A stretch of DNA of 64,000 bases from Elusimicrobiales bacterium (GCA_028713125.1 JAQTOU010000001.1:78273-142272); one strand, 5' to 3'. Numbered from the stretch's first letter, positions 5,496 to 37,525 are shown. Notes: generated from the sequence alone by a model not told the origin. Program-made: numbers and translations.

Positions 5496-5510
5496 TTTAA
5501 AGTCCTCCGT

Positions 5511-7341: not shown

Positions 7342-7352
7342 GATGATGCTCC

Positions 7353-7556
7353 TTATTTATAGACCCGGATCGCCAGGTCGGGGCAGATGCGGGCGCAGCT
7401 CTGGCAGGCTATGCAGCAGCCTTCCTTCGAGTCCATGGCCGGGTAATAGCCGGTTTTGGAGAATTTATCGGATCTCTCGATGCACTTTTTCGGGCAGACC
7501 ACTATGCACAGATAGCAGCCCTTGCACTTATCTACGTCTACTTCCATCTTCGGCAT
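7353..7556 (-). CDS. 2-oxoacid:ferredoxin oxidoreductase, delta subunit (2x[4Fe-4S] ferredoxin)
   Basis: 67 aa with two CxxCxxCxxxCP motifs (CKGCYLCIVVCP, CIACQSCARICP). GGAGG RBS upstream. Confidence 0.85.
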   Translation of the reverse strand: MPKMEVDVDKCKGCYLCIVVCPKKCIERSDKFSKTGYYPAMDSKEGCCIACQSCARICPDLAIRVYK

Positions 7557-9772: not shown

Positions 9773-9855
9773 GTTGAGTTCGCCTTGCGGCGCGGCCCCG
9801 GGAGCATCGCTCCCGGGGCCGCCCACGCAGCGGGCCCGGCTGCGTTTATTTTAAC

Positions 9856-11694
9856 TTAATTCAGCTTCGCGTACTTCTCTGCGGCCGCGCCTTCTCCGGA
9901 GAGGCCCAGCTTCTCCAGGGTTTCCCTGGTCGGGATGCCGCGGTTATCGTAGCCGCGCTGGTCGTAGTAATGCTGAAGCAGCCGGTCGTATTTGTCGTAC
10001 TCCAGGTACTTGCCGGCCACGGGGCCTTCTTTGTCGGCGTTGGCCGGGTCGAACCAGACGGCCGGAGGATAATCGCCTTTGCGCGTCGCCTCGGGGAACT
10101 CGCGGATATAATGCAGCTTCATCAGGGCATAGGTGCGGTCGGCTACTTTCCACATGTCGTCGAGAGTCCAGTTCAGGCCGGTGGCCATATTAAAGTACCT
10201 GGGGTAGTTGTCCAGCGTCCAGCCCAGCTCGATCCAGGGGAAGCGGCAAGCCACCATGAATTCGAACATCCCGCCGCGGATGCGCTGCAGCTCTATCACC
10301 TTGGCCGCTTTTTCGGGTCCGTAGGACTCGCGGCTGCTGAGCTTGAGCTCGAAGGTTATGATCCAGGCTTCCTTATGGTGAGCGCCCATGGGGCCCACGC
10401 CGAAGGACAACGCCTGGCCGGGGATGAACTTGCAGTTGTAGGCGGCGATATCCAGGCCTTTTACCTGCAGCGCGTAGGCTTCGGAATTGTGGCCGAATTT
10501 CTTCGCCATGCGCAGCGAGCCCTCGGCCAGGAGATTCCCAACCTCGCCTTCACGCCGCGCGCACATGCCAAGAAGCTCCTTACCACGCTCGGCGTCGCCG
10601 AATTTGAAATCTCCCTTCGTGGCCCCACGGGCGATGGCGTCCGCGTAGAAGCTCAGCGTGCAGCCGGCCGACATCGTATCCAGACCGTACTCGTCGCAGA
10701 GGTAATTGAGCGAGCCCACCTGGTCGAGCTCGAAGACGTTCAGGTTCGAACCCAGCAGGGCGACGTTCTCGTAGTCCAGCTCGGATTCGCGGCCCTCTTT
10801 GTCGTGGATAGTGATGCCGCATTTCATCGTGCAGCTTGGGCAGCCGTAAGTGGCAACGCGGGCATTGTCGAGGCGCTCGCCGTCTATCTTCCAGGCGTCG
10901 GGGCTGCTGGTCTTGCGGCAGTTCTCCACCGGGAGGGCGGCCACTTCGTTGCACCAGGCCAGCACGCCGTTGGTGCTCTGCTTGGACCAGCCGGATTTCT
11001 GGTCCATTTCGTGGACGGTTTTAAGGTCGCCGTAGCCGGCTTTCTTCATAGCGTCGGGCTCGGCCTGCGGAATAGCTTTTGTTCCTTTTACCACGATGGC
11101 CTTGAGCAGTTTCGAGCCCATGACCGCGCCTATGCCGGGGCGCCCGCCCGCGCGGCCCTCCAGGCTGCGCACCACGGCGTAGCGCACCATGTTCTCGCCG
11201 GCCTGCCCGATGTTCAGGACGCCGGCGTTCTTGCCGTATTTCTTGTAGATCCAGTCGTTGGAGAAGTAGGTCCCTTTCCCCCACATCTCTTCGGCGCTGA
11301 GGAATTCCACTTTGTCGTCCTCGATGTAGAGCATGGTGGGCCTTTCGGCCTTCCCTTCCACGATCATCGCGTCGTAGCCGGCCTTGCGCAGCTGGCTGGA
11401 AACGTGCGTGCCCAGGTTCCCGTCGCCGTAGAAGCCCGTAAGTGGTGATTTGGCGGCGACGATGCACTTGCCGGTATTGGGGGCCGGGATGCCGGAGATG
11501 GGGCCCAGGGCGACCACCAGCTTGTTCTCGGGGCCGAGCGGGTCTATGCCCGGCTTGAGCTCGTCGTAAAGTATCTTGGCGGCGAAGCCGCGGCCGCCTA
11601 CCCACTTCTGGGCGAATTCTTCGGTGAAAGATTCTTTCTTGAACGTCTTGGTAGTCAGGTTAACCCTGAGAATATAGCCTATCCATCCTTTCAT
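9856..11694 (-). CDS. aor: Aldehyde:ferredoxin oxidoreductase (tungstopterin AOR family)
   Basis: 612 aa. N-terminus ILRVNLTT..WVGGRGFAAKILYDE..PENKLV is typical of AOR. Full-length AOR-family architecture. Confidence 0.85.
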   Translation of the reverse strand: MKGWIGYILRVNLTTKTFKKESFTEEFAQKWVGGRGFAAKILYDELKPGIDPLGPENKLVVALGPISGIPAPNTGKCIVAAKSPLTGFYGDGNLGTHVSSQLRKAGYDAMIVEGKAERPTMLYIEDDKVEFLSAEEMWGKGTYFSNDWIYKKYGKNAGVLNIGQAGENMVRYAVVRSLEGRAGGRPGIGAVMGSKLLKAIVVKGTKAIPQAEPDAMKKAGYGDLKTVHEMDQKSGWSKQSTNGVLAWCNEVAALPVENCRKTSSPDAWKIDGERLDNARVATYGCPSCTMKCGITIHDKEGRESELDYENVALLGSNLNVFELDQVGSLNYLCDEYGLDTMSAGCTLSFYADAIARGATKGDFKFGDAERGKELLGMCARREGEVGNLLAEGSLRMAKKFGHNSEAYALQVKGLDIAAYNCKFIPGQALSFGVGPMGAHHKEAWIITFELKLSSRESYGPEKAAKVIELQRIRGGMFEFMVACRFPWIELGWTLDNYPRYFNMATGLNWTLDDMWKVADRTYALMKLHYIREFPEATRKGDYPPAVWFDPANADKEGPVAGKYLEYDKYDRLLQHYYDQRGYDNRGIPTRETLEKLGLSGEGAAAEKYAKLN

Positions 11695-11742
11695 TGTATT
11701 GCCTCCTGGTAAATATAGTCTGAGTCGCGGATACGCAAGAAA

Positions 11743-13074
11743 CTACTTTTTCGCTTTCGGTTTCCGGGGCTGCGCTTTCGTGGCGGTCCCGATGGCTTTG
11801 TCGATTATATCCAGCCCCTCTACCAGCTGCTCGTCGGTGATCACGAGCGGCAGCAGGAGGCGGATGACGTTCTTGTGCAGGCCCGCGCCTGCGAGTATGA
11901 CCCCGTTATCCCGGGCTTCCTGTATCACTTTCTGGCAGGTCTCGGTGTCGGGCGACCAGCTCTCCTCGTCCTTGATGAATTCGATAGCGAGCATCGCGCC
12001 GACTCCCCTCACTTCTTTTATCGCGGGGTATTTCCCCTTAAAGCCTTCGAAGCGCTTCCTTATGATCTTCCCGAGGTAAACGGCCCGCTCGAGCAGTTTT
12101 TGTTCGTCGATCATTTTTATGATCTCGATGGCGGCCGCGCAGCCCAGCGGATTCCCGCCGTAGGTGCTGCCTATGGAACTTTTCGGGAGCGCGTCGAAGA
12201 GCTTCTTGTCCCCGACCACGGCCGAGAGCGGCAGGCCGCCCGCGATGGATTTGCCGAGCGTGATCAGGTCCGGCTCGACGCCCCAGTTCTGTATAGCGAA
12301 GAATTTCCCGGTTCTTCCATAGCCCGACTGCACCTCGTCGGCGACCATCAGGATCCCGTATTTAGAGGTGACGCGGCGTATCTCTTTGAGGAAGCCCTCG
12401 GGCGGGACATTGAAGCCTCCCTCGCCCTGGATGGGCTCTATCACGACCGCCGCGACGTCCTCGGGGCAGACGTTCTCGAGGAGGAGCTTTTCAAAATCCT
12501 CGGCGGCATACTTGTTCTTGCGCGGGTTCGGGTAAGGCAGCCGGTAGACGTCCGGCGCGGTGCCGAACAAATACTTGTAGGGCATAGGGCGGTGCGTCAT
12601 GGTCATCGTCAGCAGGGTGCGGCCATGGAAGGCCCCCTCGAAAACCACTATGCTCCTGCGCCTGGTTGCGCCCCTCGCGATCTTTACGGCGTTCTCGACC
12701 GCCTCGGCTCCGCTGTTAAAGAAAGCTACGGCCTTTTCCGCGGTCCCCCGCGCTTTTTCAGCCAGCATCTCGGACAGCTGCACCCAGGGCTCGTAGGGGA
12801 TGACGGTGAAATCGGAATGAAGAAAATTCTCCGCCTGCGCCTTTACCGCGCGGACCACGCTTTCCGGGCTATAGCCGGTTACAAGGCAGCCCCAGCCCCC
12901 GGTGAAATCCAGGAACCTGTTCCCGTCCACATCCTCTATAGCGGCGCCGAACCCTTTCTTTATATAGAAGGGGGCGAGGGAGTCCATAGGCGAGGCCGAG
13001 GAAACTTTCCTTCTCGCGGAGAGCGCTTTGCTCTCCGGCCCGGGTATTTCGGTCTTAATGAGTGTATGTTTCAT
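11743..13074 (-). CDS. Class III PLP aminotransferase, 4-aminobutyrate aminotransferase-like
   Basis: 443 aa. GabT-like N-terminus IKTEIPGPES, ADEVQSGYGRTGKFFA, and a PLP-lysine region LGKSIAGGLP. Confidence 0.8.
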   Translation of the reverse strand: MKHTLIKTEIPGPESKALSARRKVSSASPMDSLAPFYIKKGFGAAIEDVDGNRFLDFTGGWGCLVTGYSPESVVRAVKAQAENFLHSDFTVIPYEPWVQLSEMLAEKARGTAEKAVAFFNSGAEAVENAVKIARGATRRRSIVVFEGAFHGRTLLTMTMTHRPMPYKYLFGTAPDVYRLPYPNPRKNKYAAEDFEKLLLENVCPEDVAAVVIEPIQGEGGFNVPPEGFLKEIRRVTSKYGILMVADEVQSGYGRTGKFFAIQNWGVEPDLITLGKSIAGGLPLSAVVGDKKLFDALPKSSIGSTYGGNPLGCAAAIEIIKMIDEQKLLERAVYLGKIIRKRFEGFKGKYPAIKEVRGVGAMLAIEFIKDEESWSPDTETCQKVIQEARDNGVILAGAGLHKNVIRLLLPLVITDEQLVEGLDIIDKAIGTATKAQPRKPKAKK

Positions 13075-13076
13075 TA

Positions 13077-13577
13077 TCAGGCGGGGTTGGACAGCATAAG
13101 CTTCCGGGTGTACGGGATAAGGCCGCCGGCGTCGATAATGGCCTGGCGCGCCTTCGGGAGCGGGTTAGTAGCGAACGATTTCCCGGAAGTCCGGTTCATC
13201 ATCCTCCCGCCCTCTATCTCGAGCTCGTCCCCTTCGGCGGCCTCTATCTCCGGGCAGACGATGATATTAAGGCCCAGGTTGATGGCGCTCTGCAGGAAGA
13301 TGCGCGAGATGTCGCGCGCCACGATCATCATCTCGTAGCCTTTCAGGCAGGAGACGGCCTGTTCCCTGGAGGAGCCGCAGCCGAAGTTCTTTCCCGCGAC
13401 GAGGGCGCTGCCTTTGGGGATCTCCCCCGACTTCAGCCTTTTGTTGAAGTCGGGGTTGTCCGCGAAGGCGAAGGCCGGCGTTTCTGAGGGCAGCACCGTG
13501 GCCATGAAGCGCCCCGGGTAAATTATGTCGGTGGATACGTCGTCTCCAACTTTAAGGACTACTTTCTTCGTGCTCAT
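13077..13577 (-). CDS. Aconitase-family hydro-lyase, small subunit (LeuD/HacB-like)
   Basis: 166 aa from the ATG at 13577 (MSTKKVVLKVGDD). ATGA overlap with the large subunit. GKNFGCGSSREQA swivel-domain motif. The track ORF start at 13841 lies inside the large-subunit gene and is rejected. Confidence 0.8.
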   Translation of the reverse strand: MSTKKVVLKVGDDVSTDIIYPGRFMATVLPSETPAFAFADNPDFNKRLKSGEIPKGSALVAGKNFGCGSSREQAVSCLKGYEMMIVARDISRIFLQSAINLGLNIIVCPEIEAAEGDELEIEGGRMMNRTSGKSFATNPLPKARQAIIDAGGLIPYTRKLMLSNPA

Positions 13578-14863
13578 TTTGCCTCCCTGGGATCGGTTAT
13601 TACGCCCGTAAGCGCGCTCGCCGCGGCTACCGCCGGGGAGCAGAGGTAAACTTCGGCTTTCGGGTTGCCCATGCGCCCCTTGAAATTCCGGTTGGTGGTC
13701 GCCAGCGCTACCTCGTTGTCGCCAAGCGCGCCCTGGTGGATGCCGAGGCATGGCCCGCAGCCCGGATTGCAGACCACCGCGCCGGCGCGGGAGATGTCCT
13801 GGATGAAGCCGAGGTCCATCGCCTTGTGGTAGATGCGCCACGAGGCCGGGAACACCAGCATGCGCGTGCCGTCCACTACGCGCTTCCCTTTAAGTATCTT
13901 CGCCGCGACCTCGAGGTCGTCAAGGCGCCCGTTGGTGCAGGAGCCTATCACTATCTGGTGGAGCTTTTTACCCTTCACTTCCGTAACCGGCTTCACATTG
14001 TCCACGGTATGCGGGCAGGCTATCTGCGGGGTAAGCTTCGAGGCGTCTATCTCCAGGACCTGCTCGTAGACGGCGTCGGCGTCCGGGCCGAAGGTCTCTA
14101 TCTTCTCTTTCACACCGGCTTCCTCGCGGAGGTAGCGCAGCGTTTCCTCGTCGGGCGGGACCAGCCCTGAGGTGGCGCCGGCCTCAACGCTCATATTGCA
14201 GATGGTAAGCCGGCCGGAGGTGGACATGTTCCGGATCGTGTCGCCGTGGAATTCCAATACCTTGTAATTCGCGCCCTGCGCGGTGAGCTTTCCTATCACA
14301 TAGAGGATCAGGTCTTTAGGATAAACGTAAGCGGGCAGCTTGCCGTTGACCACGACCTTGATGGTGGCCGGGACTTCCACGTTAAGGATCCTGCCCAGCG
14401 TCCAGACGGAAGCCATCTCGGTGGCGCCGACGCCGAAAGAAAATGCCCCGAGCGCGCCGTGGGTAGTGGTGTGGCTGTCGGTGCCGACCAGGACATAGCC
14501 GGGCCGCACATAGCCGTTCTCCGGGAGGATCTGGTGGCAGATGCCGCCCACGTCGCCGCGGACATCGTGGAATTTCTTTATGCCCTGCTTGCCCACGAAC
14601 TCGCGGGTCTTTTTCTGGTTGCCTGCCGTCTTGGAAGACTCGGCGGGGACGCGGTGGTCGAAGATTATGGCGATATTGTCAGGGTTCCAGACTTTGGCTT
14701 CGCGGTCCGTGCCTTTGTAGATCTCTTCAAATTGACTTATCACCAGCGCGCCGTTCTCATGCGACATCGCCAGGTTCACTTTCGGCTCGAGCACTTCGCC
14801 GACATCCACTTTCGACTGGCCGACCGCTTTGGCCAGCAGCTTCTGTACGTAGGTCATTCCCAT
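13574..14863 (-). CDS. Aconitase-family hydro-lyase, large subunit (archaeal-type LeuC/HacA-like)
   Basis: 429 aa. GTDSHTTTHG, and Fe-S ligand regions IGSCTNGR and CNPGCGPCLG. Confidence 0.85.
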   Translation of the reverse strand: MGMTYVQKLLAKAVGQSKVDVGEVLEPKVNLAMSHENGALVISQFEEIYKGTDREAKVWNPDNIAIIFDHRVPAESSKTAGNQKKTREFVGKQGIKKFHDVRGDVGGICHQILPENGYVRPGYVLVGTDSHTTTHGALGAFSFGVGATEMASVWTLGRILNVEVPATIKVVVNGKLPAYVYPKDLILYVIGKLTAQGANYKVLEFHGDTIRNMSTSGRLTICNMSVEAGATSGLVPPDEETLRYLREEAGVKEKIETFGPDADAVYEQVLEIDASKLTPQIACPHTVDNVKPVTEVKGKKLHQIVIGSCTNGRLDDLEVAAKILKGKRVVDGTRMLVFPASWRIYHKAMDLGFIQDISRAGAVVCNPGCGPCLGIHQGALGDNEVALATTNRNFKGRMGNPKAEVYLCSPAVAAASALTGVITDPREAK

Positions 14864-14884
14864 TGCTTAGTCCTCCTAGATGAT

Positions 14885-16084
14885 TTAAATTACTTTCTTC
14901 TCTTTAAGGGCCGCGAATTCTTCTTCTTTTATTCCCAGGCTTGAAAGTATCTCGGCGGTATGGGCCGAAAGGCGCGGGGGCGGCGCGTTGAGCTCGCCCG
15001 GGGTGTCGGAGAACTGGGCCGCGAGGCCGAACAGCTTCAGGTTCCCGATCCCTTTCTCGTTGATATCCTTCAGGATGGCCCGGTGCTTTATCTGGGGCTG
15101 GCTGAGCGCGTCGCCCAGTTCCAGGATAGCGCCGCTCGGGACGTCTTTGCCGTTAAGGAGCTCCACCCACTCCGCGGTCGGGCGCAGGGCGAATTTCTCC
15201 TCGAGCAGCGGGGTCAGGAGCTTGCGGTTCTTCTTCCGTGTATCGCGTTTCTCGAAGCGCTGGTCGGTCTTCAGCTCCGGCACGCCCACCACGTCGCAGA
15301 GGGCTTCCCACTGCTCCTGTTTATTGGCGGCCACGTTCATATAGCCGTCCTTCGTCTTGAAAGTCCCGGAGGGAGCGGCGGTGAAATTATCATTGCCCAT
15401 CGGGACGGGCTTCTGGCCGGCGATGAGCAGGTTCGCGGCCACCCAGCCCATCAGGGGCATGATGGAGTCAAGCATGGCTATATCTATCATCTGGCCTTTG
15501 CCGCTGTGCTCGCGGTGGTAGAGCGCGGCCATTACCGCGAAGGCGGCGTTGAGCCCCCCCACCGTGTCGCAGATCGGGAAGCCGGCGCGCAGCGGGTGCA
15601 GCCGCTCGTCGCCGTTGACGTCCATTACGCCGCTCAGGCCCTGGATGATCTGGTCGTAGGCGGGCTTGAAAGCGTCGGGGCCGGTCTGGCCGAAGCCGGA
15701 GATAGAGCAGTAAATGAGGCGGGGATTTATTTCCGCGAGGGTTTGATAGCCCAGGCCGAGGCGGCCCATCACGTCGGGCCGGAAATTCTCCACCAGCACG
15801 TCCGCGGTCTTTACCAGCTTTTTAAAGATCTCTTTTCCCTCGGGCGTCTTGGTGTTGAGGGTGACCGATTTTTTATTGGAGTTCTGGGCCAGGAAGCTGG
15901 TGCCCATCAGCTGCTCGTTCAGGGCGGGCATCACGCCAAGCTTGCGGGCCAGGTCGCCGTCCTTTGGATTCTCTATCTTTATTACTTCCGCGCCGAGCAG
16001 AGCGAGGTGGAGGGTAGCGAAAGGGCCGGACAGGACATTGGTAAGGTCAAGCACCCTTACGCCGGAAAGGATCTGTTTGCTCAT
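14885..16084 (-). CDS. Family III CoA-transferase (CaiB/BaiF type)
   Basis: 399 aa. N-terminus LSGVRVLDLTNVLSGPFAT is characteristic of family III CoA-transferases. Confidence 0.85.
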   Translation of the reverse strand: MSKQILSGVRVLDLTNVLSGPFATLHLALLGAEVIKIENPKDGDLARKLGVMPALNEQLMGTSFLAQNSNKKSVTLNTKTPEGKEIFKKLVKTADVLVENFRPDVMGRLGLGYQTLAEINPRLIYCSISGFGQTGPDAFKPAYDQIIQGLSGVMDVNGDERLHPLRAGFPICDTVGGLNAAFAVMAALYHREHSGKGQMIDIAMLDSIMPLMGWVAANLLIAGQKPVPMGNDNFTAAPSGTFKTKDGYMNVAANKQEQWEALCDVVGVPELKTDQRFEKRDTRKKNRKLLTPLLEEKFALRPTAEWVELLNGKDVPSGAILELGDALSQPQIKHRAILKDINEKGIGNLKLFGLAAQFSDTPGELNAPPPRLSAHTAEILSSLGIKEEEFAALKEKKVI

Positions 16085-16100
16085 GATGCGCTCCTTGAAT

Positions 16101-17024
16101 TTACGGCAGAACGGCTGTTTTTACGCTGATAGGCCCCGTCGTGTAAACGAAACCCTGCATCTCGCGCCCGAAGTGCTTCGCTACGTCGCGGGCGACCTCG
16201 AGCAGCTTCTCCAGGCTTATATCCTTCCTGAGGCCTTCCCTCTGCAGCACGTGCACGAAGTCCTCGGTGGCCACGTTCCCCGCGGCCGTCTTGGTGAAAG
16301 GGCAGCCGCCGAGGCCGGCGAAAGAGGTTTCGAAAGAGGTCACGCCCGACCGCATCGCCGCGAACATATTGGCCATGCCCAGCCCGTAGGTATTGTGGAA
16401 GTGGGCTGTGCAGTCTATGCCCGGGTCGAGCGCCAGGACCGCGCCGAAGAGCCGCTCCACCTGGGCCGGGTGCGCGTGGCCCGCGGTATCGGCGAGGCTT
16501 ATGCTCTTCAGGCCGGCCTCGAGATAGGCGCGCGCTATTTTCAGGACGCGCTCCTCGGGAATGGGCCCTTCGAAGCCGCAGCCGAAAGCCGATTGGACGG
16601 AAACCTGGACTCTCTTGCCGGCGGCCAGCGCCGCTTTGGCCGCCGGTATGATGCGCGCGACGGCCTCGTCCGTGCCCATGCCCGTGTTCTTGCGGCTGTG
16701 GGTTTCGCTGGCCGAGACGCCCAGGCAGAACATTTCCACGCCGCAGGCGAGCCCGCGCTCCAGCCCCTTCTCGTTGAGCACCAGGCCGGAGAGCATGGCT
16801 TTGGACTTTTTGTCCGCCGTAAACCGGCGGAACAGTTCGTCGGTGTCGGCCATCTGCGGCATCTTCACAGGGTGCACGAATGAGCCGACCTGTATTATGT
16901 CCACACCGGATTCCAGCAGTCCGGAGAGCCAGACCGCCTTCTTTTCAAGAGGGACGACCTGGCTTTCCATCTGCAGGCCGTCCCGCAGTCCTACTTCGTG
17001 GAGAAGCAGGGCTTTAGAGGTCAT
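16101..17024 (-). CDS. HMG-CoA-lyase-family (DRE-TIM) hydroxyacyl-CoA lyase
   Basis: 307 aa. EVGLRDGLQ, SFVHPVKMPQMAD and GLGGCPFTKTAAGNVATEDFVHVL closely follow the HMG-CoA lyase pattern. It lacks the C-terminal domains of LeuA/CimA synthases. Confidence 0.8.
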   Translation of the reverse strand: MTSKALLLHEVGLRDGLQMESQVVPLEKKAVWLSGLLESGVDIIQVGSFVHPVKMPQMADTDELFRRFTADKKSKAMLSGLVLNEKGLERGLACGVEMFCLGVSASETHSRKNTGMGTDEAVARIIPAAKAALAAGKRVQVSVQSAFGCGFEGPIPEERVLKIARAYLEAGLKSISLADTAGHAHPAQVERLFGAVLALDPGIDCTAHFHNTYGLGMANMFAAMRSGVTSFETSFAGLGGCPFTKTAAGNVATEDFVHVLQREGLRKDISLEKLLEVARDVAKHFGREMQGFVYTTGPISVKTAVLP

Positions 17025-18157
17025 TTAACGGTTACCGCGCACTTGTCCGCTATGGCCTTCGCCATGTCGATAGTGGTGGCCGAGCCGCCCATATCGTAGG
17101 TGCGCACTTTCCCTTCGGCTATAACCTCGGCGACGGCGTCTTCGATGATCTTCGCCTTGGCGGTCTCCCCCAGCCAGTCCAGCATCATCTTGGCCGCGAG
17201 TATCGTGGCGATGGGGTTTACTTTGTACATGCCGGCGTATTTGGGCGCCGAGCCGTGGGAGGGCTCGAACACGCCGAGTTTCGTTCCGATATTGGCGGAG
17301 CAGCCGAAGCCCAGGCCGCCGACCATCTGCGCGCTAAGGTCGGAGATGATGTCGCCGTAGAGGTTCGGGGCCACCAGCACGTCGTAGTTGAAGGGGTTCT
17401 TCAGCAGCCACATGGTCATGGCGTCGATATTGGCGTCATCCATCTTTATGCCGGGGTATTCCTTGGCCACGGCTTTCGCCGTCTCGAAGAACAGCCCGTC
17501 GGTGGCGCGCACGACGTTCGCCTTGTGCACCACTGTGACCTTCTTGCGGCCGAACTTCTTCGCGAATTCGAAGGCGGCGCGCACTATGCGCTCCGAGCCT
17601 TTGCGGGTGTTTATCTTGCAGGAGATGGCGTATTCATCGCTCTTCAGGCCCTTGAAAGCCTTGAAAGCGGGCGAGAGCTCGGCCAGGACGTCGCGGAGTT
17701 TGTCCGGCACCGTATTGAATTCAACGCCGGCGTAAAGGTCCTCGGTGTTCTCGCGGAACACTACGATATCTATGCCTTCTTTGTAGTTAAGCGGATTCTT
17801 CGGGTAGGCTTTGCAGGGGCGCAGGCAGTTATAGAGGTCGAACATCTGGCGCATGCGCACGATGGGCGAGCGGTAGACCAGGCCTTTTCCCTGCAGGGCG
17901 GGTACCAGCTCTTTCTCGGCGTCTTTTACCGGTTTGGAGGTTATGGCGCCGAACATCGCGGCGTCCACGTTGCCCAGCAGGTCGATAGTGCGCTGGGGGA
18001 AGGAATCGCCTTCCTTGCACCAGAATTCCCAGCCTATGTCTCCGTGGGGGTATTCGGCGTCCAGTCCTACGCGGTCAAGAACGATCTTCGCCGCTTCCAT
18101 CACTTCGACGCCTACGCCGTCGCCTGGCAGCCACGCTATCTTGTATTTCTTTCCCAT
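17021..18157 (-). CDS. Isocitrate/homoisocitrate/isopropylmalate dehydrogenase family protein
   Basis: 378 aa from the ATG at 18157 (MGKKYKIAWLPGDGVG) with a GGAGGA RBS. Motifs VVFRENTEDLYAG, YRSPIVRMRQMFDLYNCLRP and NLYGDIISD. The track start at 18217 lies upstream of the predicted promoter. Confidence 0.85.
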   Translation of the reverse strand: MGKKYKIAWLPGDGVGVEVMEAAKIVLDRVGLDAEYPHGDIGWEFWCKEGDSFPQRTIDLLGNVDAAMFGAITSKPVKDAEKELVPALQGKGLVYRSPIVRMRQMFDLYNCLRPCKAYPKNPLNYKEGIDIVVFRENTEDLYAGVEFNTVPDKLRDVLAELSPAFKAFKGLKSDEYAISCKINTRKGSERIVRAAFEFAKKFGRKKVTVVHKANVVRATDGLFFETAKAVAKEYPGIKMDDANIDAMTMWLLKNPFNYDVLVAPNLYGDIISDLSAQMVGGLGFGCSANIGTKLGVFEPSHGSAPKYAGMYKVNPIATILAAKMMLDWLGETAKAKIIEDAVAEVIAEGKVRTYDMGGSATTIDMAKAIADKCAVTVK

Positions 18158-18221
18158 GTTGGAGTCCTCCGTAGAATCTTTGCCCTGTTTGCCGGATGAA
18201 CCGCTGCACAGGGGCAAAGTT

Positions 18222-18251
18222 ATATTACCACTAAGCCAATTTTGTTGTCAA
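18222..18251 (-). promoter_or_regulatory. Sigma70-like promoter of the IDH-like operon
   Basis: On the minus strand it reads TTGACA (18251-18246), an 18-nt spacer, then TAATAT (18227-18222). It sits about 60 nt upstream of the ATG at 18157. Confidence 0.5.
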
Positions 18252-18301: not shown

Positions 18302-18859
18302 CTAACCGGAGGCTTTTAGCAGGTAAAGTTTCTTGTCCGCCATGCGGTAGAACATCGGCAGCACTTTTACGTTTGGATACTTCAGATTGAGCCGCTTCGC
18401 CTCGGCCCTGACGAAATCCAACTCGCTGCCGATCTCGAAGCGCGGGGCGTTCTTCAGAAAATGGCGCATGGCGTCCTTGCGGGTCCACCCTCCGTTCTTT
18501 ACGAGCCCGGAAACGAATTTCCCGCGCTTCGAGGCCAGGTTCACCATACCGCAGTTGTCGTGCGCTATCATAGCGACATGCCTTACGCCGCCTATCCCGA
18601 CCGCATAGGATATCTTGAACTCGTTATAGCGCATATTCCCCCCGCCGGTTCGGAGTATATAAGCGAAGTTATCGGGAAGGCTCAGCTGCTTCTTATTGTC
18701 CATGCACATGCAGACGAGGACTTCGGCCTTATGGTGCTTCCTCGGCGGCCTGCCGCAATTGTGGTAGTCGATCAGACGGCCGAGCGGGGTATGCCTTAAG
18801 CCCTGCGGGATGTCCGAGGCGGTCCTTACCGGTCTTAGGTCTTGCATGAAATGCGCCAT
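18302..18859 (-). CDS. Hypothetical protein with beta-carbonic-anhydrase-like Cys/His motifs
   Basis: 185 aa. CMCMDNKK (C-x-D) and IAHDNCGM (H-x-x-C-G) resemble the beta-CA zinc site, but Lys replaces the Arg of the Asp-Arg dyad. The assignment is tentative. Confidence 0.35.
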   Translation of the reverse strand: MAHFMQDLRPVRTASDIPQGLRHTPLGRLIDYHNCGRPPRKHHKAEVLVCMCMDNKKQLSLPDNFAYILRTGGGNMRYNEFKISYAVGIGGVRHVAMIAHDNCGMVNLASKRGKFVSGLVKNGGWTRKDAMRHFLKNAPRFEIGSELDFVRAEAKRLNLKYPNVKVLPMFYRMADKKLYLLKASG

Positions 18860-18909
18860 AAAATAGTCCCTGTCCGAGCCGCGCGGCTGCCGCGGCCGCG
18901 TCAGTAAAA

Positions 18910-18938
18910 AGTATAGCAGAGCCGCTGTATATGGGCAA
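18910..18938 (-). promoter_or_regulatory. Extended -10 promoter for the CA-like gene
   Basis: On the minus strand it reads TTGCCC, a 17-nt spacer, then TGcTATACT. It lies in the divergent region shared with the LysR gene. Confidence 0.4.
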
Positions 18939-18974
18939 AATAGATAATTTAGTAGAATATCATCGTATAAAACT

Positions 18975-19904
18975 ATGATACCTATAAACTACCACCACCT
19001 GTATTATTTCTACATCATCGCCCGGGAAGGAAGCATAAGCAGGGCCTGCAAGATCCTCCTGCTGGCGCAGTCCACGCTGAGCGCCCAGCTTATGCAGCTG
19101 GAGGCCTCCCTGGGAGGGAAGCTCTTCGAGCGGAAAAAGCAGCGGCTTCTCCTTACGGAGAAGGGGCGCATGGTGCTGGGCTATGCCGAGAGCATTTTTG
19201 AAATGGGGCGCGAACTTCAGGACGCGATCAAGGACCGGCCGCAGCCGGGCCGCAGCGCCATCCAGGTGGGGATATTGAACGGGACGCCGCGGGCCTTCGG
19301 GCACGCGCTTATAGAATGCCTGCTTAAGGACGCCGACCTGCCTCGCGTGACCGTCCAGGAAGGCAGCCTCGGGGAGCTTGTAGCGGGGCTGAGCCAGCAG
19401 AAGCTGGACGTCGTTCTTTCCGACGTAAGCATGCGGGGCCCGGACCAGGGGGCTATCTTCAACCACCTTATCGCGAAGATCCCGGTCGTCCTCGCCGCGT
19501 CTCCGAAAGTAGCCGGGCGCTGCCGGAAGATCCCGGCCGACCTGGACGGAGCGCCTTTTATCCTTCCCTCCCTGCCGAGCCAGGTCTATCACCAGGTGCA
19601 GGAGGCCCTGGCCCAGTGGAATATCCGGCCCAATGTGGTGGCTGAAGTTCAGGACGTGGAGCTGGCGCGCCGCCTGGCGATGGCCGGGCGCGGTATCGCG
19701 CCGATCAATGAATATACCGTAGCGTCAAGCCTCCCGGCCGGCCGGCTGAAGGTCATCGCGGCCAGCCGCGCTTTCGGGATCCATGAATCCGTCTATCTTA
19801 TTACGAGGAAAAGAAGATGGCCCAATCCGATGGCGGACCGGCTGGTAAAAAATTTCCGCGCTTTATTCGCGGCTAAAAGCGGCCGAGCTTCTCCGCTATT
19901 ATAA
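18975..19904 (+). CDS. LysR-family transcriptional regulator, NhaR-like
   Basis: 309 aa. The N-terminal wHTH INYHHLYYFYIIAREGSISRACKILLLAQSTLSAQLMQLE resembles NhaR. The 3' end overlaps the convergent CoA-transferase B gene by 32 nt. Confidence 0.85.
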   Translation: MIPINYHHLYYFYIIAREGSISRACKILLLAQSTLSAQLMQLEASLGGKLFERKKQRLLLTEKGRMVLGYAESIFEMGRELQDAIKDRPQPGRSAIQVGILNGTPRAFGHALIECLLKDADLPRVTVQEGSLGELVAGLSQQKLDVVLSDVSMRGPDQGAIFNHLIAKIPVVLAASPKVAGRCRKIPADLDGAPFILPSLPSQVYHQVQEALAQWNIRPNVVAEVQDVELARRLAMAGRGIAPINEYTVASSLPAGRLKVIAASRAFGIHESVYLITRKRRWPNPMADRLVKNFRALFAAKSGRASPLL

Positions 19905-20526
19905 GTTTGGCCCCGGTGTTCTTTATCACTTCTTCCACCGTAGTGTCCTCGGCTATTTCTTCGAGGACCAGGCCCGCCGGCGTCACTCTGATGAAAGCCA
20001 TTTCGGTGACGATGAGGTTGACCTCTTTCGGGGCGGTGAGAGGGAGGGTGCATTTCTTAACGATCTTCGGCTCGCCGTGCTTGCTGACGTGCTCCATCGC
20101 TATGACCACGTTCTTGGCGCCGACGGAGAGGTCCATGGCCCCGCCTATGCCGGGGATGAATTTGCCCGGGATAGTGTAGTTCGCCAGGTTCCCCTCCTCG
20201 TCCACTTCGAGGGCGCCCAGGATCGTGTAGTCCAGGTGGCCGCCGCGGATGATGGCGAAAGACATCGAGGAATCGAAGCAGCAGCCGCCGGGCACGAGCG
20301 TGGCCGCCTGGCCGCCGGCGTTCACCAGGTTAGGATCTTCCTGCCCGGGCGCGGCGGGCGCACCGAGGCCGATATAGCCGTTCTCGGAGTGCAGGAGTAT
20401 CCCTTTGCCCTCCGGGATAAAATTGCTGACCAGGGTGGGGATCCCGATGCCGAGGTTGACTATCGAATTCTCCGGCAGCTCCCTCGCTATTCTTTTCGCT
20501 ATCCTGAGCCTCATATTATCGTCCAT
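19873..20526 (-). CDS. 3-oxoacid CoA-transferase (family I), subunit B
   Basis: 217 aa. The catalytic-glutamate motif SENG is present (LLHSENGYIGLG). Confidence 0.85.
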   Translation of the reverse strand: MDDNMRLRIAKRIARELPENSIVNLGIGIPTLVSNFIPEGKGILLHSENGYIGLGAPAAPGQEDPNLVNAGGQAATLVPGGCCFDSSMSFAIIRGGHLDYTILGALEVDEEGNLANYTIPGKFIPGIGGAMDLSVGAKNVVIAMEHVSKHGEPKIVKKCTLPLTAPKEVNLIVTEMAFIRVTPAGLVLEEIAEDTTVEEVIKNTGAKLIIAEKLGRF

Positions 20527-20527
20527 T

Positions 20528-21202
20528 TTAGTTCACCCCTTTCGCGACGGCTTTCGAAACCTTCACCAGAGTATCTATGAAAACGCAAGGGAAAGTCACT
20601 TTTTCAGGGTCGAGCTGCCCAGGCTCGACTATCTCTTCCGCTTCGAGTATCACGTGGGCGGCCGCCATCGCCATCGCGGCGTTGAAATTCTTGGAGGAGC
20701 CGGCGGAGAAGCCGTTGCCGTATTTATCGGCCTTGTTCGCCCTGACCACCGCGAAGTCGGCCCTGAGCGGTTTCTCCAGGAGGTATTTTTTGCCGTCCAC
20801 CGTCAGGACTTCCTTCCCTTCGGCGATCGCGGTGCCGAGTCCCGTCGGGGTCAGCACCCCGCCAAGGCCGGCTCCCGCGGCGCGGATCCTCTCCACGAAA
20901 GTGCCCTGCGGGACGAGCTCTATCTTGATCTCGCCGGATTTCATCTTCTCGCCCATTATCCGGTTCATCCCGATGTAGGAGCCGATGAATTTAGTCACTC
21001 TGCCCGCCATGACCAGCTTGATGATCCCGGTTTCCTCTTTGGAGGTGTCGTTGGAGATGATGGTCAGGTCCTTTATGCCTTTTTCGTAGATGGCCTCGAG
21101 AACTTCGGCTGGCCGCCCGCAGGAAATAAAGCCGCCTATCATTATCGAGCAGCCGTCCTTCATGTTCTCAACAGCCTGCCGTGGTGTTTTAATCGGTTTC
21201 AT
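20528..21202 (-). CDS. 3-oxoacid CoA-transferase (family I), subunit A
   Basis: 224 aa from the ATG at 21202 (MKPIKTPRQAVENMKDGCSIMIGGF) with a GGAGG RBS. The track start at 21289 lies in a hairpin-rich leader and is rejected. Confidence 0.85.
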   Translation of the reverse strand: MKPIKTPRQAVENMKDGCSIMIGGFISCGRPAEVLEAIYEKGIKDLTIISNDTSKEETGIIKLVMAGRVTKFIGSYIGMNRIMGEKMKSGEIKIELVPQGTFVERIRAAGAGLGGVLTPTGLGTAIAEGKEVLTVDGKKYLLEKPLRADFAVVRANKADKYGNGFSAGSSKNFNAAMAMAAAHVILEAEEIVEPGQLDPEKVTFPCVFIDTLVKVSKAVAKGVN

Positions 21203-21374
21203 CGTACCTCCGCCGCTAAATTTAACAGTTCTCCTGAAAGTTGCAGTCGCAACTTTCCGCCCGCATTGCGGGCGCCCTGCGGGAGGCATACACCTCTTCG
21301 GGCCTGGCGCGCATAGCGCTGGGCCCTCCGCCCGCTCCGCGGGGAATCCTGCGGATTCAGGTTAAATTATAACA
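21203..21374 (-). promoter_or_regulatory. Extended -10 promoter plus ~155-nt hairpin-rich 5' leader of the CoA-transferase operon
   Basis: Minus-strand TGtTATAAT at 21374-21366. Perfect hairpins at 21344-21358 (6 bp), 21331-21343 (5 bp), 21258-21274 (7 bp) and 21236-21257 (9 bp). A 9-position long-range helix gcggagggc/gcctcccgc is also present. Confidence 0.45.
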
Positions 21375-27909: not shown

Positions 27910-27918
27910 TTTCCCTCC

Positions 27919-30638: not shown

Positions 30639-30641
30639 CTT

Positions 30642-32642: not shown

Positions 32643-32696
32643 GCTATTTCTTCCAGGTTTCATGAGATTATATAGGGGCCGGCGCTACCGCCGGCT

Positions 32697-37506: not shown

Positions 37507-37525
37507 GAGGCGCGGCGAAACAAGC

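Follow-up and report, generated by a model that had tools for sequence, protein, structure and literature searches.

A widely conserved synthase-free gene cassette at the head of an Elusimicrobiales operon and its possible role between lysine, 2-oxoadipate and 2-oxoglutarate

The window analysed here is a 64,000-nucleotide stretch of DNA from an Elusimicrobiales bacterium (GCA_028713125.1), in which an ORF check placed seven closely spaced genes of the same direction on the minus strand (9856-18157). With Pfam and NCBIfam they were assigned, in operon order, to an Iso_dh-family β-decarboxylating dehydrogenase (17021-18157, 378 aa; PF00180), an HMGL-family acyl-CoA lyase (16101-17024, 307 aa; PF00682), a family III CoA-transferase (CoA_transf_3; 14885-16084, 399 aa; PF02515), the large subunit of an archaeal-type LeuC/HacA hydro-lyase (Aconitase/LeuC-like; 13574-14863, 429 aa), the LeuD/HacB-type small subunit (13077-13577, 166 aa), a class III GabT-like aminotransferase (Aminotran_3; 11743-13074, 443 aa; PF00202) and a tungsten/molybdopterin aldehyde:ferredoxin oxidoreductase (AOR; AFOR_N and AFOR_C; 9856-11694, 612 aa; PF02730 and PF01314). 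The successive junctions measure -4, 16, 21, -4, -4 and 48 nt, and the operon, including the dehydrogenase motif YRSPIVRMRQ, is as the initial annotation described it. That annotation had also noted the lack of a condensing synthase, and within the 64 kb window there is indeed no LeuA/CimA/homocitrate-synthase-like gene, nor a second copy of any operon gene.

The dehydrogenase gene starts with ATG at 18157, preceded by the ribosome binding site GGAGG (18170-18166) and by the promoter proposed earlier (18251-18222, minus strand), with its -35 box TTGACA at 18251-18246, an 18-nt spacer and a TG-extended -10 box TAATAT at 18227-18222. It matches 10 of 12 positions in a promoter scan; the region holds 4 promoter-like sites against 3.1 expected, which makes TTGACA-18-TAATAT taken alone statistically ordinary. 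The element TTGACAA...GTGnTAAnAT is found upstream of the first gene in six of the seven aligned Elusimicrobia loci, diverged ones included (L082, L006, L020, L002 and L086 among those that keep it), and because of this conservation the promoter is probably real.

Two neighbouring systems noted before were also located. A four-subunit 2-oxoacid:ferredoxin oxidoreductase (OFOR; 4956-7556, minus strand; Pfam, NCBIfam) begins 2.3 kb downstream with the δ subunit (7353-7556), followed by α (6253-7341), β (5511-6269) and γ (4956-5495). Its orthologs (46-53% identity) lie immediately upstream of the homologous genes in Ignavibacteriota/Bacteroidota (L050, L052, L053), whereas those of Elusimicrobia (L013, L015, L019, L086) lie downstream. 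An OFOR ortholog and a succinyl/acetyl-type CoA-transferase adjoin these genes in two phyla; judging from these positions, the OFOR is possibly linked to the operon. Upstream, on the minus strand, a family I CoA-transferase (PF01144; ScoA/ScoB, AtoDA-like) is encoded by subunit B (19873-20526) and subunit A (20528-21289) genes, both above the NCBIfam cut-off (pcaJ_scoB, 291 bits; pcaI_scoA, 236 bits). These two genes directly precede the operon on the same strand in most Elusimicrobia (L005, L007, L008, L011-L013, L015, L019).

The first five genes, for dehydrogenase, lyase, transferase, LeuC and LeuD, form a cassette that is complete in 47 fetched loci from about 12 bacterial phyla, with an identical compact gene order in 43 of them. 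Identity to the window ranges from 54 to 99%, with medians of 67-81%. This recurrence bears out the central claim of the initial annotation, that a hydro-lyase and dehydrogenase are joined to a CoA-transferase and HMGL-family lyase, and it argues that the cassette is a selected functional unit rather than a chance neighbourhood. Outside Elusimicrobia it is flanked by unrelated housekeeping genes, and no lysine-related neighbour, regulator or transporter stands beside it at those loci.

The lyase (PF00682, 134 bits; PDB 1YDO, 208 bits) scores above the cut-off of the NCBIfam HMG-CoA lyase subfamily (263 vs 246 bits), synthase models reaching at most 79 bits, and keeps the RD, HxH and GLGGCP motifs. 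However, true HMG-CoA lyases have RDGLQNE, whereas every cassette lyase has RDGLQ[MVAIL]E instead. The transferase (PF02515, 420 bits) is nearest in NCBIfam to succinate-glutarate CoA-transferase (313 bits), formyl-CoA transferase (266 bits) and succinyl-CoA:mesaconate CoA-transferase (250 bits), all below cut-off, and conserves the stretch GFP[VI]CDTVGG with the presumed catalytic Asp. We propose that the former is a putative homocitryl-CoA lyase, interconverting acetyl-CoA plus 2-oxoglutarate and homocitryl-CoA, and the latter a putative acyl-CoA:homocitrate CoA-transferase.

The initial annotation gave HMG catabolism delivering acetoacetate to the 3-oxoacid CoA-transferase as a competing reading, which the lyase score and the ScoAB genes would suit. 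It is not supported: HMG is not an α-hydroxy acid, so the LeuCD and Iso_dh enzymes would have no place, the RDGLQNE motif is altered throughout the family, and genes for isovaleryl-CoA dehydrogenase, methylcrotonyl-CoA carboxylase and methylglutaconyl-CoA hydratase were not found nearby. Leucine-type chemistry in either direction would connect 2-oxoisocaproate and 2-oxoisovalerate via isopropylmalyl-CoA, with a VorB-type OFOR acting on 2-oxoisovalerate. The OFOR α subunit exceeds the VorB subfamily cut-off (491 vs 399 bits), so that a branched-chain 2-oxoacid would be no worse a fit than 2-oxoglutarate or 2-oxoadipate, which counts against our preferred reading, and specificity positions in the dehydrogenase and small subunit are hydrophobic. 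However, the dehydrogenase lacks the IPMDH signature E-x-x-L-L and the lysine genes described below would be left unexplained; leucine and HMG chemistry taken together seem highly improbable to us.

The dehydrogenase (PF00180, 304 bits) is closest to homoisocitrate dehydrogenase (HICDH) both in NCBIfam (AksF2 HICDH, 342; IDH, 291; LeuB, 270 bits; all below cut-off) and in the PDB (Thermus HICDH, 236; NAD-IDH, 234 bits). Its substrate-helix motif YRSPIVRMRQ, invariant in 62 family loci, shares SPIV with the HICDH of S. pombe (YSSPIVALRK), whereas the IDHs of E. coli and A. pernix have RSLNVA[LI]RQ, whose S-x-N is absent from the cassette enzyme. To our knowledge, characterised IDHs carry the isocitrate-binding Asn115; the cassette dehydrogenases have Ile at this position, as does Thermus HICDH, preceded by Pro114 and followed by Val116, positions 115 and 116 thus being hydrophobic. 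The SPIV motif therefore looks fungal homoisocitrate-dehydrogenase-like, not of the isocitrate type, and helix geometry alone suggests that the invariant extra Arg in SPIVR may bind the distal carboxylate. A second invariant motif, SAPKY[AST]G..KVNP (SAPKYAG..KVNP in the window), is of the NADP type and includes the counterparts of K344/Y345, the residues that we take to confer NADP specificity on E. coli IDH; in Thermus HICDH and in the PDB 6LTF IDH the motif reads APDIAG instead. NADPH use would fit a reductive step.

These features bear on whether the acid is citrate, in an rTCA-like cleavage or formation unit independent of ATP-citrate lyase: 2-oxoglutarate, CO2 and NADPH would give isocitrate, citrate, citryl-CoA and finally acetyl-CoA plus oxaloacetate, with the OFOR as a 2-oxoglutarate synthase or oxidoreductase. 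In structure citryl-CoA comes closest to HMG-CoA, with a carboxylate in place of the methyl group; outside the SPIV helix the dehydrogenase resembles a type I NADP-IDH (YRS, CLRP, FRENTEDLYAGVEF, APKYAG); an OFOR and a succinyl-CoA:acetate-type transferase adjoin the cassette in Ignavibacteriota; and all steps would be reversible. Nevertheless, the Ile and Pro at positions 115 and 114 in family members, the lack of an obvious gain for aerobic hosts already running a normal TCA cycle and the unexplained lysine/saccharopine genes make citrate a decidedly unlikely substrate.

The large subunit of the hydro-lyase exceeds the cut-offs of PRK00402 (556 bits), IPMI_arch (522 bits) and hacA_fam (518 bits), its best equivalog model is the methanogen HacA (486 vs 449 bits for LEU2), and the Fe-S cysteine motifs GSCTNGR and GCG[PC]CLG are conserved. 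The small subunit, with a GSSRE motif and a recognition loop YPGRFMATVLP invariant in 51 loci, passes LEUD_arch (110.7 bits; cut-off 108.95). In the PDB it matches MJ1277 with 110, MJ1271 with 86 and the P. horikoshii (PH) LeuD with 76 bits, the isopropylmalate/citramalate isomerase of M. jannaschii (110 bits) thereby outscoring its homoaconitase (86 bits), and the loop F-M-A-T lacks the Arg of the methanogen homoaconitase loop YLRT. Both observations count against homocitrate, but the second objection loses weight because the P. horikoshii subunit, whose YNLT likewise has no Arg, is able to replace the Thermus homoaconitase subunit (PMC7308503).

The uncharged loop and the isomerase match, with the hydrophobic residues at dehydrogenase positions 115 and 116, would also suit (R)-citramalate, linking pyruvate plus acetyl-CoA to 2-oxobutyrate via citramalyl-CoA, citramalate and 3-methylmalate, either to make isoleucine without a synthase or, run backwards, to convert threonine/methionine-derived 2-oxobutyrate to pyruvate and acetyl-CoA while bypassing propionyl-CoA. 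The (R)-citramalyl-CoA lyase of Chloroflexus is the sole characterised non-HMG member of the lyase family known to us; in work by Friedmann, Alber and Fuchs (2006/2007) it is reportedly partnered by a family III succinyl-CoA:citramalate transferase. In L053, moreover, an upstream Cys_Met_Meta_PP enzyme could be a methionine γ-lyase yielding 2-oxobutyrate. Yet the Chloroflexota pairs are distant (lyases 32-36%, transferases 37-40% identity), the best HMMs of the dehydrogenase and large subunit belong to the 'homo' series, and no role would be obvious for the invariant Arg of SPIVR. Since citramalate is normally handled by housekeeping LeuCD/LeuB, a dedicated pair would be unnecessary, and the LKR, saccharopine dehydrogenase and AOR genes would be left idle. 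We regard citramalate as a rather unlikely substrate.

The gene position after LeuD connects the cassette to lysine. In the window and in L004, L006, L008, L019 and L086 it is occupied by the GabT-like transaminase (PF00202, 398 bits; PDB GabT, 351 bits; NCBIfam GABA-AT, 454-470, and 2-aminoadipate transaminase, 369 bits, all below cut-off), and in L002/L010, L015, L016 and L022 by genes for a lysine-ketoglutarate reductase (LKR) and a saccharopine dehydrogenase (SDH), with 7-nt spacers in L002. AOR follows this pair in L002/L010 and L015, and AOR orthologs lie downstream of the cassette in L002, L006, L008, L010-L013 and L015. The LKR of the sister Elusimicrobia is far nearer to the LKR domain of human AASS (283 bits) than to fungal LYS1 (52 bits), which suggests the catabolic AASS type. 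We propose that the aminotransferase is an ω-transaminase acting on lysine/2-aminoadipate semialdehyde, or a 2-aminoadipate:2-oxoglutarate transaminase, and that AOR interconverts 2-aminoadipate semialdehyde and 2-aminoadipate. Such a lysine branch explains AOR and aminotransferase better than the transamination of the elongation product envisaged initially. In L002 a MoaD/ThiS-like protein is encoded after AOR, and its GG terminus suggests a cofactor-related sulfur carrier as AOR partner, not LysW. The GabT-like aminotransferase, AASS-type LKR, AOR, OFOR and ScoAB are accessory genes typical of catabolism.

Taken together, the LKR/SDH genes of sister operons and the SPIV motif favour homocitrate/2-oxoadipate and lysine over citrate or citramalate. 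From gene content, order, conservation and motifs, all observed directly, we infer substrate, CoA partner and direction, and we tentatively prefer, at somewhat less than an even chance, a reversible lysine-linked homocitrate-type module (acetyl-CoA + 2-oxoglutarate <-> 2-oxoadipate + CO2) with chain shortening favoured. Its intermediates would be homocitryl-CoA, homocitrate, cis-homoaconitate and homoisocitrate: the lyase, acting on the CoA ester, would form or cleave the C-C bond, the transferase would exchange CoA with succinate or acetate, the probable free acids, without thioester hydrolysis, the LeuCD-type enzyme would isomerise the acid, and the NADP-type dehydrogenase would carry out oxidative decarboxylation or reductive carboxylation. 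Since the irreversible thioester hydrolysis of a synthase is absent, all steps would lie near equilibrium and both directions would be possible. In Elusimicrobia the module would be co-transcribed with enzymes joining it to lysine, lysine and 2-aminoadipate 6-semialdehyde being interconverted by the transaminase (window) or by LKR plus SDH (sister genomes), and the semialdehyde and 2-aminoadipate by the tungsten AOR with ferredoxin. A transamination step linking 2-aminoadipate to 2-oxoadipate is assumed and has no assigned gene in the LKR/SDH variants. In the favoured catabolic direction lysine would pass through 2-aminoadipate to 2-oxoadipate, which NADPH-dependent reductive carboxylation and later cleavage would turn into 2-oxoglutarate and acetyl-CoA, while the adjoining OFOR and family I CoA-transferase would recycle succinyl-CoA and acetyl-CoA. 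No description of a synthase-free homocitrate-like cassette or route was found in the searchable literature, and the analysis suggests that this reversible route is undescribed.

Cleavage is the direction in known CoA-transferase plus lyase pairs (citrate lyase CitF/CitE, Chloroflexus Sct/Ccl, Smt/Mcl), and elongation pathways known to us rely on synthases. Against the catabolic direction, the only reverse flux through a LeuCD/Iso_dh pair that we know of is that of aconitase/IDH in the rTCA cycle, and the housekeeping surroundings outside Elusimicrobia look more biosynthetic. Lysine synthesis is weighed as an unlikely alternative: acetyl-CoA and 2-oxoglutarate would give homocitryl-CoA, CoA would be passed to succinate or acetate, and homocitrate would proceed via 2-oxoadipate to 2-aminoadipate, whose unactivated carboxylate AOR and reduced ferredoxin would reduce in place of the ATP/NADPH-dependent Lys2 or LysZ/LysY, before saccharopine reductase and dehydrogenase, or the transaminase, completed lysine. 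The gene set maps one-to-one on the fungal AAA pathway except for two energy-consuming steps, both of which would be replaced by energy-conserving enzymes; the lyase-transferase-LeuC-LeuD order is the anabolic reaction order; and L053 has a MetY-like neighbour. The SDH homolog also slightly favours fungal saccharopine reductase (LYS9; yeast 334, Magnaporthe 331 bits) over human AASS (306 bits). However, the LKR is of the AASS type, a lyase plus transferase is not known from any biosynthetic elongation pathway, acid reduction by AOR/ferredoxin would be uphill by about 25 kJ/mol (our own estimate), and no lysine riboswitch was found upstream. A second lysine route would also be redundant in Gammaproteobacteria, Gemmatimonadota and Acidobacteriota, because Gram-negatives requiring meso-diaminopimelate normally make lysine via LysA.

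A lineage-specific insert (18302-19904) separates the Sco genes from the cassette in the window. It comprises a β-carbonic-anhydrase-like ORF on the minus strand (18302-18859) and, divergently oriented on the plus strand, the gene of a LysR-type regulator with LysR domains (18975-19904); L020 and L082 share this pair, and L006 has the ORF. The carbonic-anhydrase likeness, noted earlier, holds as far as the zinc motifs C-x-D and H-x-x-C and a weak PDB similarity (β-carbonic anhydrase/CS2 hydrolase, E about 2e-3) go, but the ORF has no match in Pfam or NCBIfam. At the other end, two GC-rich hairpins without a T-tract (9783-9846, minus strand) lie directly 3' of the AOR stop codon, a possible attenuation point or operon end; the scan listed the first of them on the plus strand.

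Seven ORFs on the minus strand of the window (9856-18157) follow one another with junctions of -4, 16, 21, -4, -4 and 48 nt, and their coordinates, these junctions and the Pfam/NCBIfam assignments of their products confirm the tight seven-gene operon described in the initial annotation. In order of transcription they encode an Iso_dh-family dehydrogenase (17021-18157, 378 aa; PF00180, 304 bits), an HMGL-family lyase (16101-17024, 307 aa), a family III CoA-transferase (14885-16084, 399 aa), the archaeal-type LeuC/HacA (13574-14863, 429 aa) and LeuD/HacB (13077-13577, 166 aa) subunits of a hydro-lyase, a GabT-like class III aminotransferase (11743-13074, 443 aa) and a tungsten aldehyde:ferredoxin oxidoreductase (AOR; 9856-11694, 612 aa); the first five genes are referred to as the cassette. 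The dehydrogenase gene starts with the ATG at 18157, preceded by GGAGG, and the previously noted TTGACA-18-TAATAT promoter, which has a TG-extended -10 element, was found by sequence inspection and promoter scan at 18251-18222 (-). The match alone is no better than chance, since four promoter-like sites were found against 3.1 expected; the element is kept in six of the seven aligned Elusimicrobia loci, diverged ones included. The missing condensing synthase likewise stood up to the search: no LeuA/CimA/homocitrate synthase (HCS)-type gene is present in the 64 kb window or among the flanking genes examined at other loci, and the window holds no second copy of any operon gene. No lysine riboswitch, T-box or other leader element was detected upstream of the cassette by Rfam at gathering thresholds in the window and seven diverse loci, where nothing but a tRNA and, in another part of the window, a NiCo riboswitch was matched. 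At 9783-9846 (-), past the AOR stop codon and ahead of the BrkB-like next gene, the sequence holds two strong GC-rich hairpins that lack a T-tract.

Relatives of the cassette lyase number in the thousands; among those with names, Elusimicrobia MAGs supply the closest. Scanning one genome for each GTDB species provided 80 loci, which were mapped by tblastn; a lyase at least 50% identical is encoded in 73 of them, and all five cassette genes in 47, of which 43 have the compact order Iso_dh-lyase-transferase-LeuC-LeuD. The lyase and CoA-transferase genes, 16 nt apart in the window, are adjacent in 64 loci. The cassette hosts include Elusimicrobiota, Gemmatimonadota, Acidobacteriota, Ignavibacteriota, Bacteroidota, Kapaibacteria, Gammaproteobacteria (Lysobacterales, Woeseiaceae), Hyphomicrobiales, Myxococcota, Eisenbacteria, Armatimonadota and Chloroflexota, with at least one isolate among them, Geothrix fuzhouensis SG12 (Acidobacteriota). 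Median identity to the window proteins is highest for the dehydrogenase (81%), followed by the transferase and LeuC (76% each), the lyase (72%) and LeuD (67%); such unusually high identity across phyla suggests lateral spread under strong constraint. The recurrence of the five genes as one cassette indicates that they are a unit selected by evolution, and the lack of a synthase belongs to the system itself.

All-against-all clustering of flank ORFs together with Pfam searches, in which antisense shadow ORFs produced by the greedy caller in high-GC loci were disregarded, revealed no conserved neighbours, regulator or transporter in the flanks outside Elusimicrobia; these are made up of lineage-specific housekeeping genes such as those for HtrA, PepA, HemN, OsmC, adenosine deaminase and DinB. 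The cassette was found in none of 72,556 plasmids searched by tblastn with the lyase, the plasmid matches being generic HMG-CoA lyases of about 43% identity or less. A few loci depart from the common arrangement. One gammaproteobacterial MAG (MFD03551.bin.2.18) carries two full cassettes on different contigs (L038 and L073), both 67-84% identical to the window; the dehydrogenase gene is separated from the lyase gene by an extra ORF in locus L044 (8482-9933) and by a methyltransferase gene and a DUF6933 gene in L084 (8321-9739), and L085 has lyase-transferase-LeuC-LeuD without an adjacent dehydrogenase gene. In two betaproteobacterial loci, L072 (4465-10867, Ramlibacter) and L076 (Diaphorobacter), a distant HMGL-like lyase of 35-40% identity with the motif RDGLQME adjoins a family III CoA-transferase, and L072 additionally has a tartrate/D-malate-dehydrogenase-like Iso_dh gene; these loci may represent a parallel lyase/transferase/dehydrogenase system.

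Our analysis of the lyase places it in the HMGL family (PF00682, 133.8 bits against a cut-off of 29) and in the HMG-CoA lyase subfamily (PRK05692, 263.3 bits against 246); it scores 79 bits or less with all LeuA, CimA and homocitrate synthase models and, at 307 aa, lacks the LeuA-type C-terminal domain. The motifs RDGLQ and H[FI]H[ND]T are conserved, as is GLGGCPF in 77 of the 80 loci. Where the HMG-CoA lyases of B. subtilis and P. aeruginosa share the motif RDGLQNE, every cassette-bearing locus has M, V, A, I or L in place of the Asn. The best model for the CoA-transferase is succinate-glutarate CoA-transferase, which it matches at 313 bits (cut-off 750). In these matches the cassette pair resembles HMG-CoA lyase with a succinate-hydroxymethylglutarate/glutarate (SUGCT-type) CoA-transferase, but the cassette partners LeuCD and Iso_dh cannot act on HMG. 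It had been considered that the operon might serve HMG catabolism and feed acetoacetate to the neighbouring CoA-transferase; the need of LeuCD and Iso_dh for a 2-hydroxy acid, together with the altered RDGLQNE motif, speaks against this route, and the HMG reading was rejected. Leucine-catabolic genes were found in none of the flanks. Taken as the acid on which the cassette acts, isopropylmalate or HMG is highly improbable.

Another parallel to the lyase-transferase pair is found in Chloroflexus aurantiacus, in which, reportedly from work of the Fuchs laboratory, an HMGL-family lyase ((R)-citramalyl-CoA lyase, Ccl) beside a family III CoA-transferase (succinyl-CoA:(R)-citramalate CoA-transferase, Sct) acts with it on a 2-substituted malate via its CoA ester. 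The two pairs are alike in family and adjacency, but only the cassette pair is joined to a hydro-lyase and a dehydrogenase. The lyase-transferase pairs of four Chloroflexota (Anaerolineae) loci (L078-L081) are no closer to the cassette than generic homologs are, with 32-36% identity for the lyase and 37-40% for the transferase. Citramalate, the acid of the Chloroflexus enzymes, is quite unlikely to be that of the cassette, and the substrate is probably a tricarboxylate.

Which tricarboxylate is involved can be approached through the dehydrogenase and the hydro-lyase. The dehydrogenases of 62 family loci carry the motif YRSPIVRMRQ, where the isocitrate dehydrogenases (IDHs) of E. coli and A. 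pernix have RSLNVA[LI]RQ in the same helix. Ser113 and Asn115 (E. coli IDH numbering) are taken by us to bind the gamma-carboxylate of isocitrate; in these 62 loci the Ser is kept, while Leu114 is replaced by Pro and Asn115 by Ile. An isocitrate dehydrogenase reading was rejected on this mismatch to the S-x-N motif. Citrate as the acid, which would make the cassette a counterpart of aconitase and IDH, is very unlikely, the isocitrate-binding Asn being absent from the dehydrogenase. The S. pombe homoisocitrate dehydrogenase (HICDH; 3TY3) reads YSSPIVALRK and has the same SPIV as the cassette family, and in the Thermus HICDH these positions hold Ile and then Arg85. The family dehydrogenase therefore has an HICDH-type helix without the IDH Asn and with an invariant extra Arg one residue past the Arg85 position; we infer that a distal carboxylate could be bound by this Arg of SPIVR. 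The cofactor motif SAPKY[AST]G..KVNP is invariant in the family and matches K344/Y345, the NADP determinants of E. coli IDH, unlike APDIAG of the Thermus HICDH and of the IDH in PDB 6LTF. Among NCBIfam models the methanogen HICDH (AksF2) ranks first with 342 bits, against an AksF2 cut-off of 540, followed by IDH (291) and LeuB (270), all below cut-offs.

The LeuC-type and LeuD-type subunits pass NCBIfam subfamily cut-offs, and the large subunit ranks methanogen HacA (486 bits) above archaeal LeuC (449), both below their cut-offs. The scores of the dehydrogenase and the large subunit under the equivalog cut-offs indicate new subfamilies. Overall the small subunit scores higher with isopropylmalate isomerase (110 bits) than with homoaconitase (86). 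Its invariant recognition loop, [FY]-M-A-T, is without the Arg (Arg26) of the M. jannaschii homoaconitase loop YLRT and keeps the Thr, which is absent from the isopropylmalate isomerase loop YLVY. The P. horikoshii small subunit, with the Arg-less loop YNLT, can stand in for the homoaconitase subunit of Thermus (PMC7308503), so that an Arg-less loop is no bar to homoaconitate.

The genes after leuD in Elusimicrobia differ from one genome to the next. The aminotransferase and AOR genes occur together in the window and in two other loci (L006, L008), the aminotransferase gene alone in L019 and L086, and the AOR gene alone in L011 and L013. In L002/L010 and L015 the aminotransferase position is taken by lysine-ketoglutarate reductase-like (LKR-like) and saccharopine dehydrogenase-like (SDH-like) genes, followed by the AOR gene and a small ORF; L016 and L022 have the same LKR-like and SDH-like genes, and there the locus ends or the AOR gene is not seen. 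The LKR-like and SDH-like genes of L002 have 7-nt spacers. The LKR-like protein scores 283 bits to the LKR domain of human AASS versus 52 to fungal LYS1, and the SDH-like protein 334 bits to yeast Lys9, 331 to the Magnaporthe saccharopine reductase and 306 to the human SDH domain. The two genes are of the AlaDh_PNT (LKR/LYS1) and Sacchrp_dh_NADP families, respectively. LKR and SDH transfer the epsilon-amino group of lysine to 2-oxoglutarate and leave 2-aminoadipate 6-semialdehyde (AASA). Both genes are absent from the window, which encodes the GabT-like transaminase instead. The aminotransferase or LKR-SDH position and the AOR gene give the most specific available hint of function, and point to the aminoadipate/2-oxoadipate node. 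LKR-SDH pairs that share 57-60% identity with those of Elusimicrobia also occur in L087, L088 and L089, from uncultured lineages labelled by their sources as TA06, Zixibacteria and Anaerolineae, as isolated two-gene units without cassette or AOR gene; these neither extend nor contradict the cassette-lysine link.

The AOR of the window matches PF02730 (248.6 bits) and PF01314 (315.4 bits), and its CPSCTMKC fits the C-x2-C-x3-C cluster motif. Neither a Lys2-type aminoadipate reductase nor an AASA dehydrogenase is encoded; the AOR is encoded instead. The small ORF after the AOR gene in L002 is MoaD/ThiS-like with GG at the C-terminus, an end that marks it as a MoaD/ThiS-type sulfur carrier rather than LysW, and it plausibly serves the AOR cofactor. 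A role for this ORF as a LysW carrier is ruled out by the GG end, and no LysX/Z/Y genes are present in the annotated flanks. In L019 (15661-18106) a tandem-duplicated gene pair (about 211 and about 124 aa) without Pfam matches follows the aminotransferase gene and occupies the AOR position of other genomes.

A ScoA/ScoB-type family I CoA-transferase is encoded directly upstream of the cassette and on the same strand in most Elusimicrobia; in the lineage of the window a LysR gene and a carbonic anhydrase-like (CA-like) ORF are inserted between them. The CA-like gene had been named from the sequence, and the ORF is there (18302-18859 (-), 185 aa), but the carbonic anhydrase label is weak, with a match to a beta-carbonic anhydrase/CS2 hydrolase in the PDB at E about 2e-3 and none in Pfam. 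It keeps the C-x-D and H-x-x-C motifs and may be a diverged zinc enzyme. The LysR regulator gene (18975-19904 (+)) is divergent from it; the pair is also found in L020 and L082, and the CA-like ORF alone in L006. Downstream of the operon, a four-subunit 2-oxoacid:ferredoxin oxidoreductase (OFOR) comes after two envelope genes. In Ignavibacteriota/Bacteroidota loci an ortholog of it (46-53% identity) directly precedes the cassette and is itself preceded by genes for a Cat1/AarC-type CoA-transferase and a MetY-like protein.

Several known systems resemble parts of this arrangement. The first half of the alpha-aminoadipate (AAA) pathway of fungi, Thermus and archaea and the methanogen AksA-AksD-E-AksF route likewise combine an archaeal-type two-subunit hydro-lyase with an Iso_dh-family dehydrogenase, but start with a LeuA/HCS-type synthase, in whose place the cassette has the HMGL-family lyase and the family III CoA-transferase; moreover, the cassette dehydrogenase has NADP-type K-Y where the Thermus HICDH has NAD-type D-I. 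If the cassette is reversed, its logic is the same as that of citrate cleavage in the reductive TCA (rTCA) cycle by CitF/CitE, by citryl-CoA synthetase and lyase or by ATP-citrate lyase (ACL), with aconitase and IDH: a 2-oxoacid is reductively carboxylated, isomerised, CoA-activated and cleaved to acetyl-CoA and a 2-oxoacid one carbon shorter. CitF/CitE and ACL are unrelated in family to the CoA_transf_3 and HMGL-like proteins of the cassette, which would use no ATP. In its predicted chemistry the cassette parallels the first half of the AAA pathway or, run in reverse, rTCA citrate cleavage, yet it belongs to neither, for it lacks the synthase, the IDH Asn and the HICDH residues of the NAD type. 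Sister operons share LKR and SDH with the AASS and LYS9/LYS1 saccharopine pathways, which use an NAD-dependent AASA dehydrogenase in catabolism or Lys2 in biosynthesis, whereas the Elusimicrobia operon encodes the ferredoxin-dependent tungsten AOR. The LysW-mediated AAA pathway of Thermus and archaea uses LysW and LysX/Z/Y/J/K, and the small ORF of L002 does not match LysW.

Judged from sequence, the most probable substrate pair of the cassette is 2-oxoglutarate/2-oxoadipate, with a lysine link in Elusimicrobia. In the proposed sequence, the lyase would interconvert acetyl-CoA plus 2-oxoglutarate with homocitryl-CoA; the transferase would exchange homocitryl-CoA and succinate or acetate for homocitrate and the acyl-CoA; the hydro-lyase would interconvert homocitrate and homoisocitrate; and the dehydrogenase would interconvert homoisocitrate plus NADP+ with 2-oxoadipate, CO2 and NADPH. 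None of these steps would be irreversible. Our tentative preference is for homocitrate as the substrate in a catabolic run. Lysine would then be converted to 2-aminoadipate by LKR/SDH, or by the GabT-like omega-transaminase as their one-step equivalent, followed by the AOR, which would interconvert AASA and 2-aminoadipate and here reduce ferredoxin; transamination would give 2-oxoadipate, from which the cassette would yield 2-oxoglutarate and acetyl-CoA, and the OFOR could remake succinyl-CoA from 2-oxoglutarate for the transferase.

Chain shortening is favoured because, to our knowledge, CoA-transferase-lyase pairs act in cleavage and elongation pathways use synthases, because the cofactor motif is of the NADP type, and because the accessory genes are of catabolic type (AASS-like LKR, GabT-like aminotransferase, AOR, OFOR and ScoAB). 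The LysR gene and the weakly carbonic anhydrase-like gene preceding the operon in one sub-lineage point the same way, and bacteria that require diaminopimelate (DAP) for their cell wall would presumably need no second lysine route. A search meant to settle the direction found no DAP or other amino-acid biosynthesis genes in the rest of the window. The opposite, anabolic use of homocitrate in lysine biosynthesis is unlikely; in its favour, outside Elusimicrobia the cassette sits among housekeeping genes, and the two steps of the AAA pathway that consume energy would be replaced. In its fullest form, the catabolic homocitrate reading would make the cassette a reverse homocitrate pathway, in which NADPH would drive the carboxylation of 2-oxoadipate, and homoisocitrate would pass to homocitrate, receive CoA by transfer and be cleaved to acetyl-CoA and 2-oxoglutarate. 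That this is an rTCA-like, ATP-free and hitherto unrecognised entry of lysine carbon into central metabolism in about a dozen phyla, with the tungsten AOR as a ferredoxin-reducing AASA oxidoreductase in Elusimicrobia, is a somewhat more doubtful proposal.

The cassette is a real and broadly conserved variant of 2-oxoacid elongation/shortening chemistry that has apparently not been described before. No description of it or of homocitryl-CoA was found in the searchable literature, and a survey of Elusimicrobia genomes says nothing of lysine. All textbook 2-oxoacid elongations that we know of (TCA entry, leucine, citramalate-isoleucine, AAA-lysine, coenzyme B, glucosinolates and NifV) begin with a LeuA- or citrate-synthase-type enzyme, whose thioester hydrolysis makes elongation one-way; the cassette is a widespread predicted alternative in which the thioester would be kept and the reaction would be reversible in principle. 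When bacteria break down lysine, 2-oxoadipate is known to go to glutaryl-CoA or, in Pseudomonas, through the HglS reaction. Action on homocitrate would mean either a new fate of 2-oxoadipate in this catabolism or an energy-saving bacterial AAA lysine pathway, with AOR in place of ATP-dependent carboxylate reduction. Either outcome would alter the lysine-metabolism annotation of thousands of environmental genomes, in which the cassette genes are currently labelled HMG-CoA lyase, CoA transferase, 3-isopropylmalate dehydratase and isocitrate/isopropylmalate dehydrogenase, and would provide an enzyme source for 2-oxoadipate, adipate or glutarate bioproduction.

Other features were noted elsewhere in the window. 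The NiCo (nickel/cobalt) riboswitch (44768-44845 (+), 38.5 bits against a gathering score of 37) immediately precedes a gene for a P-type cation ATPase (44885-47440). Two tandem copies of a TonB-dependent receptor gene with a gene for an ABC_sub_bind-type periplasmic binding protein are located at 29763-35520 (-), and genes for a PAS histidine kinase and a response regulator (27466-29766) adjoin this set. Three genes at 35813-38880 (+), encoding a DAO protein with a BFD-like [2Fe-2S] protein, a Pyr_redox_2 flavoprotein and a DUF1667 protein, suggest an oxidoreductase complex for amino acids or opines, of an uncharacterised type, and a second DAO-family gene is found at 136-1341.
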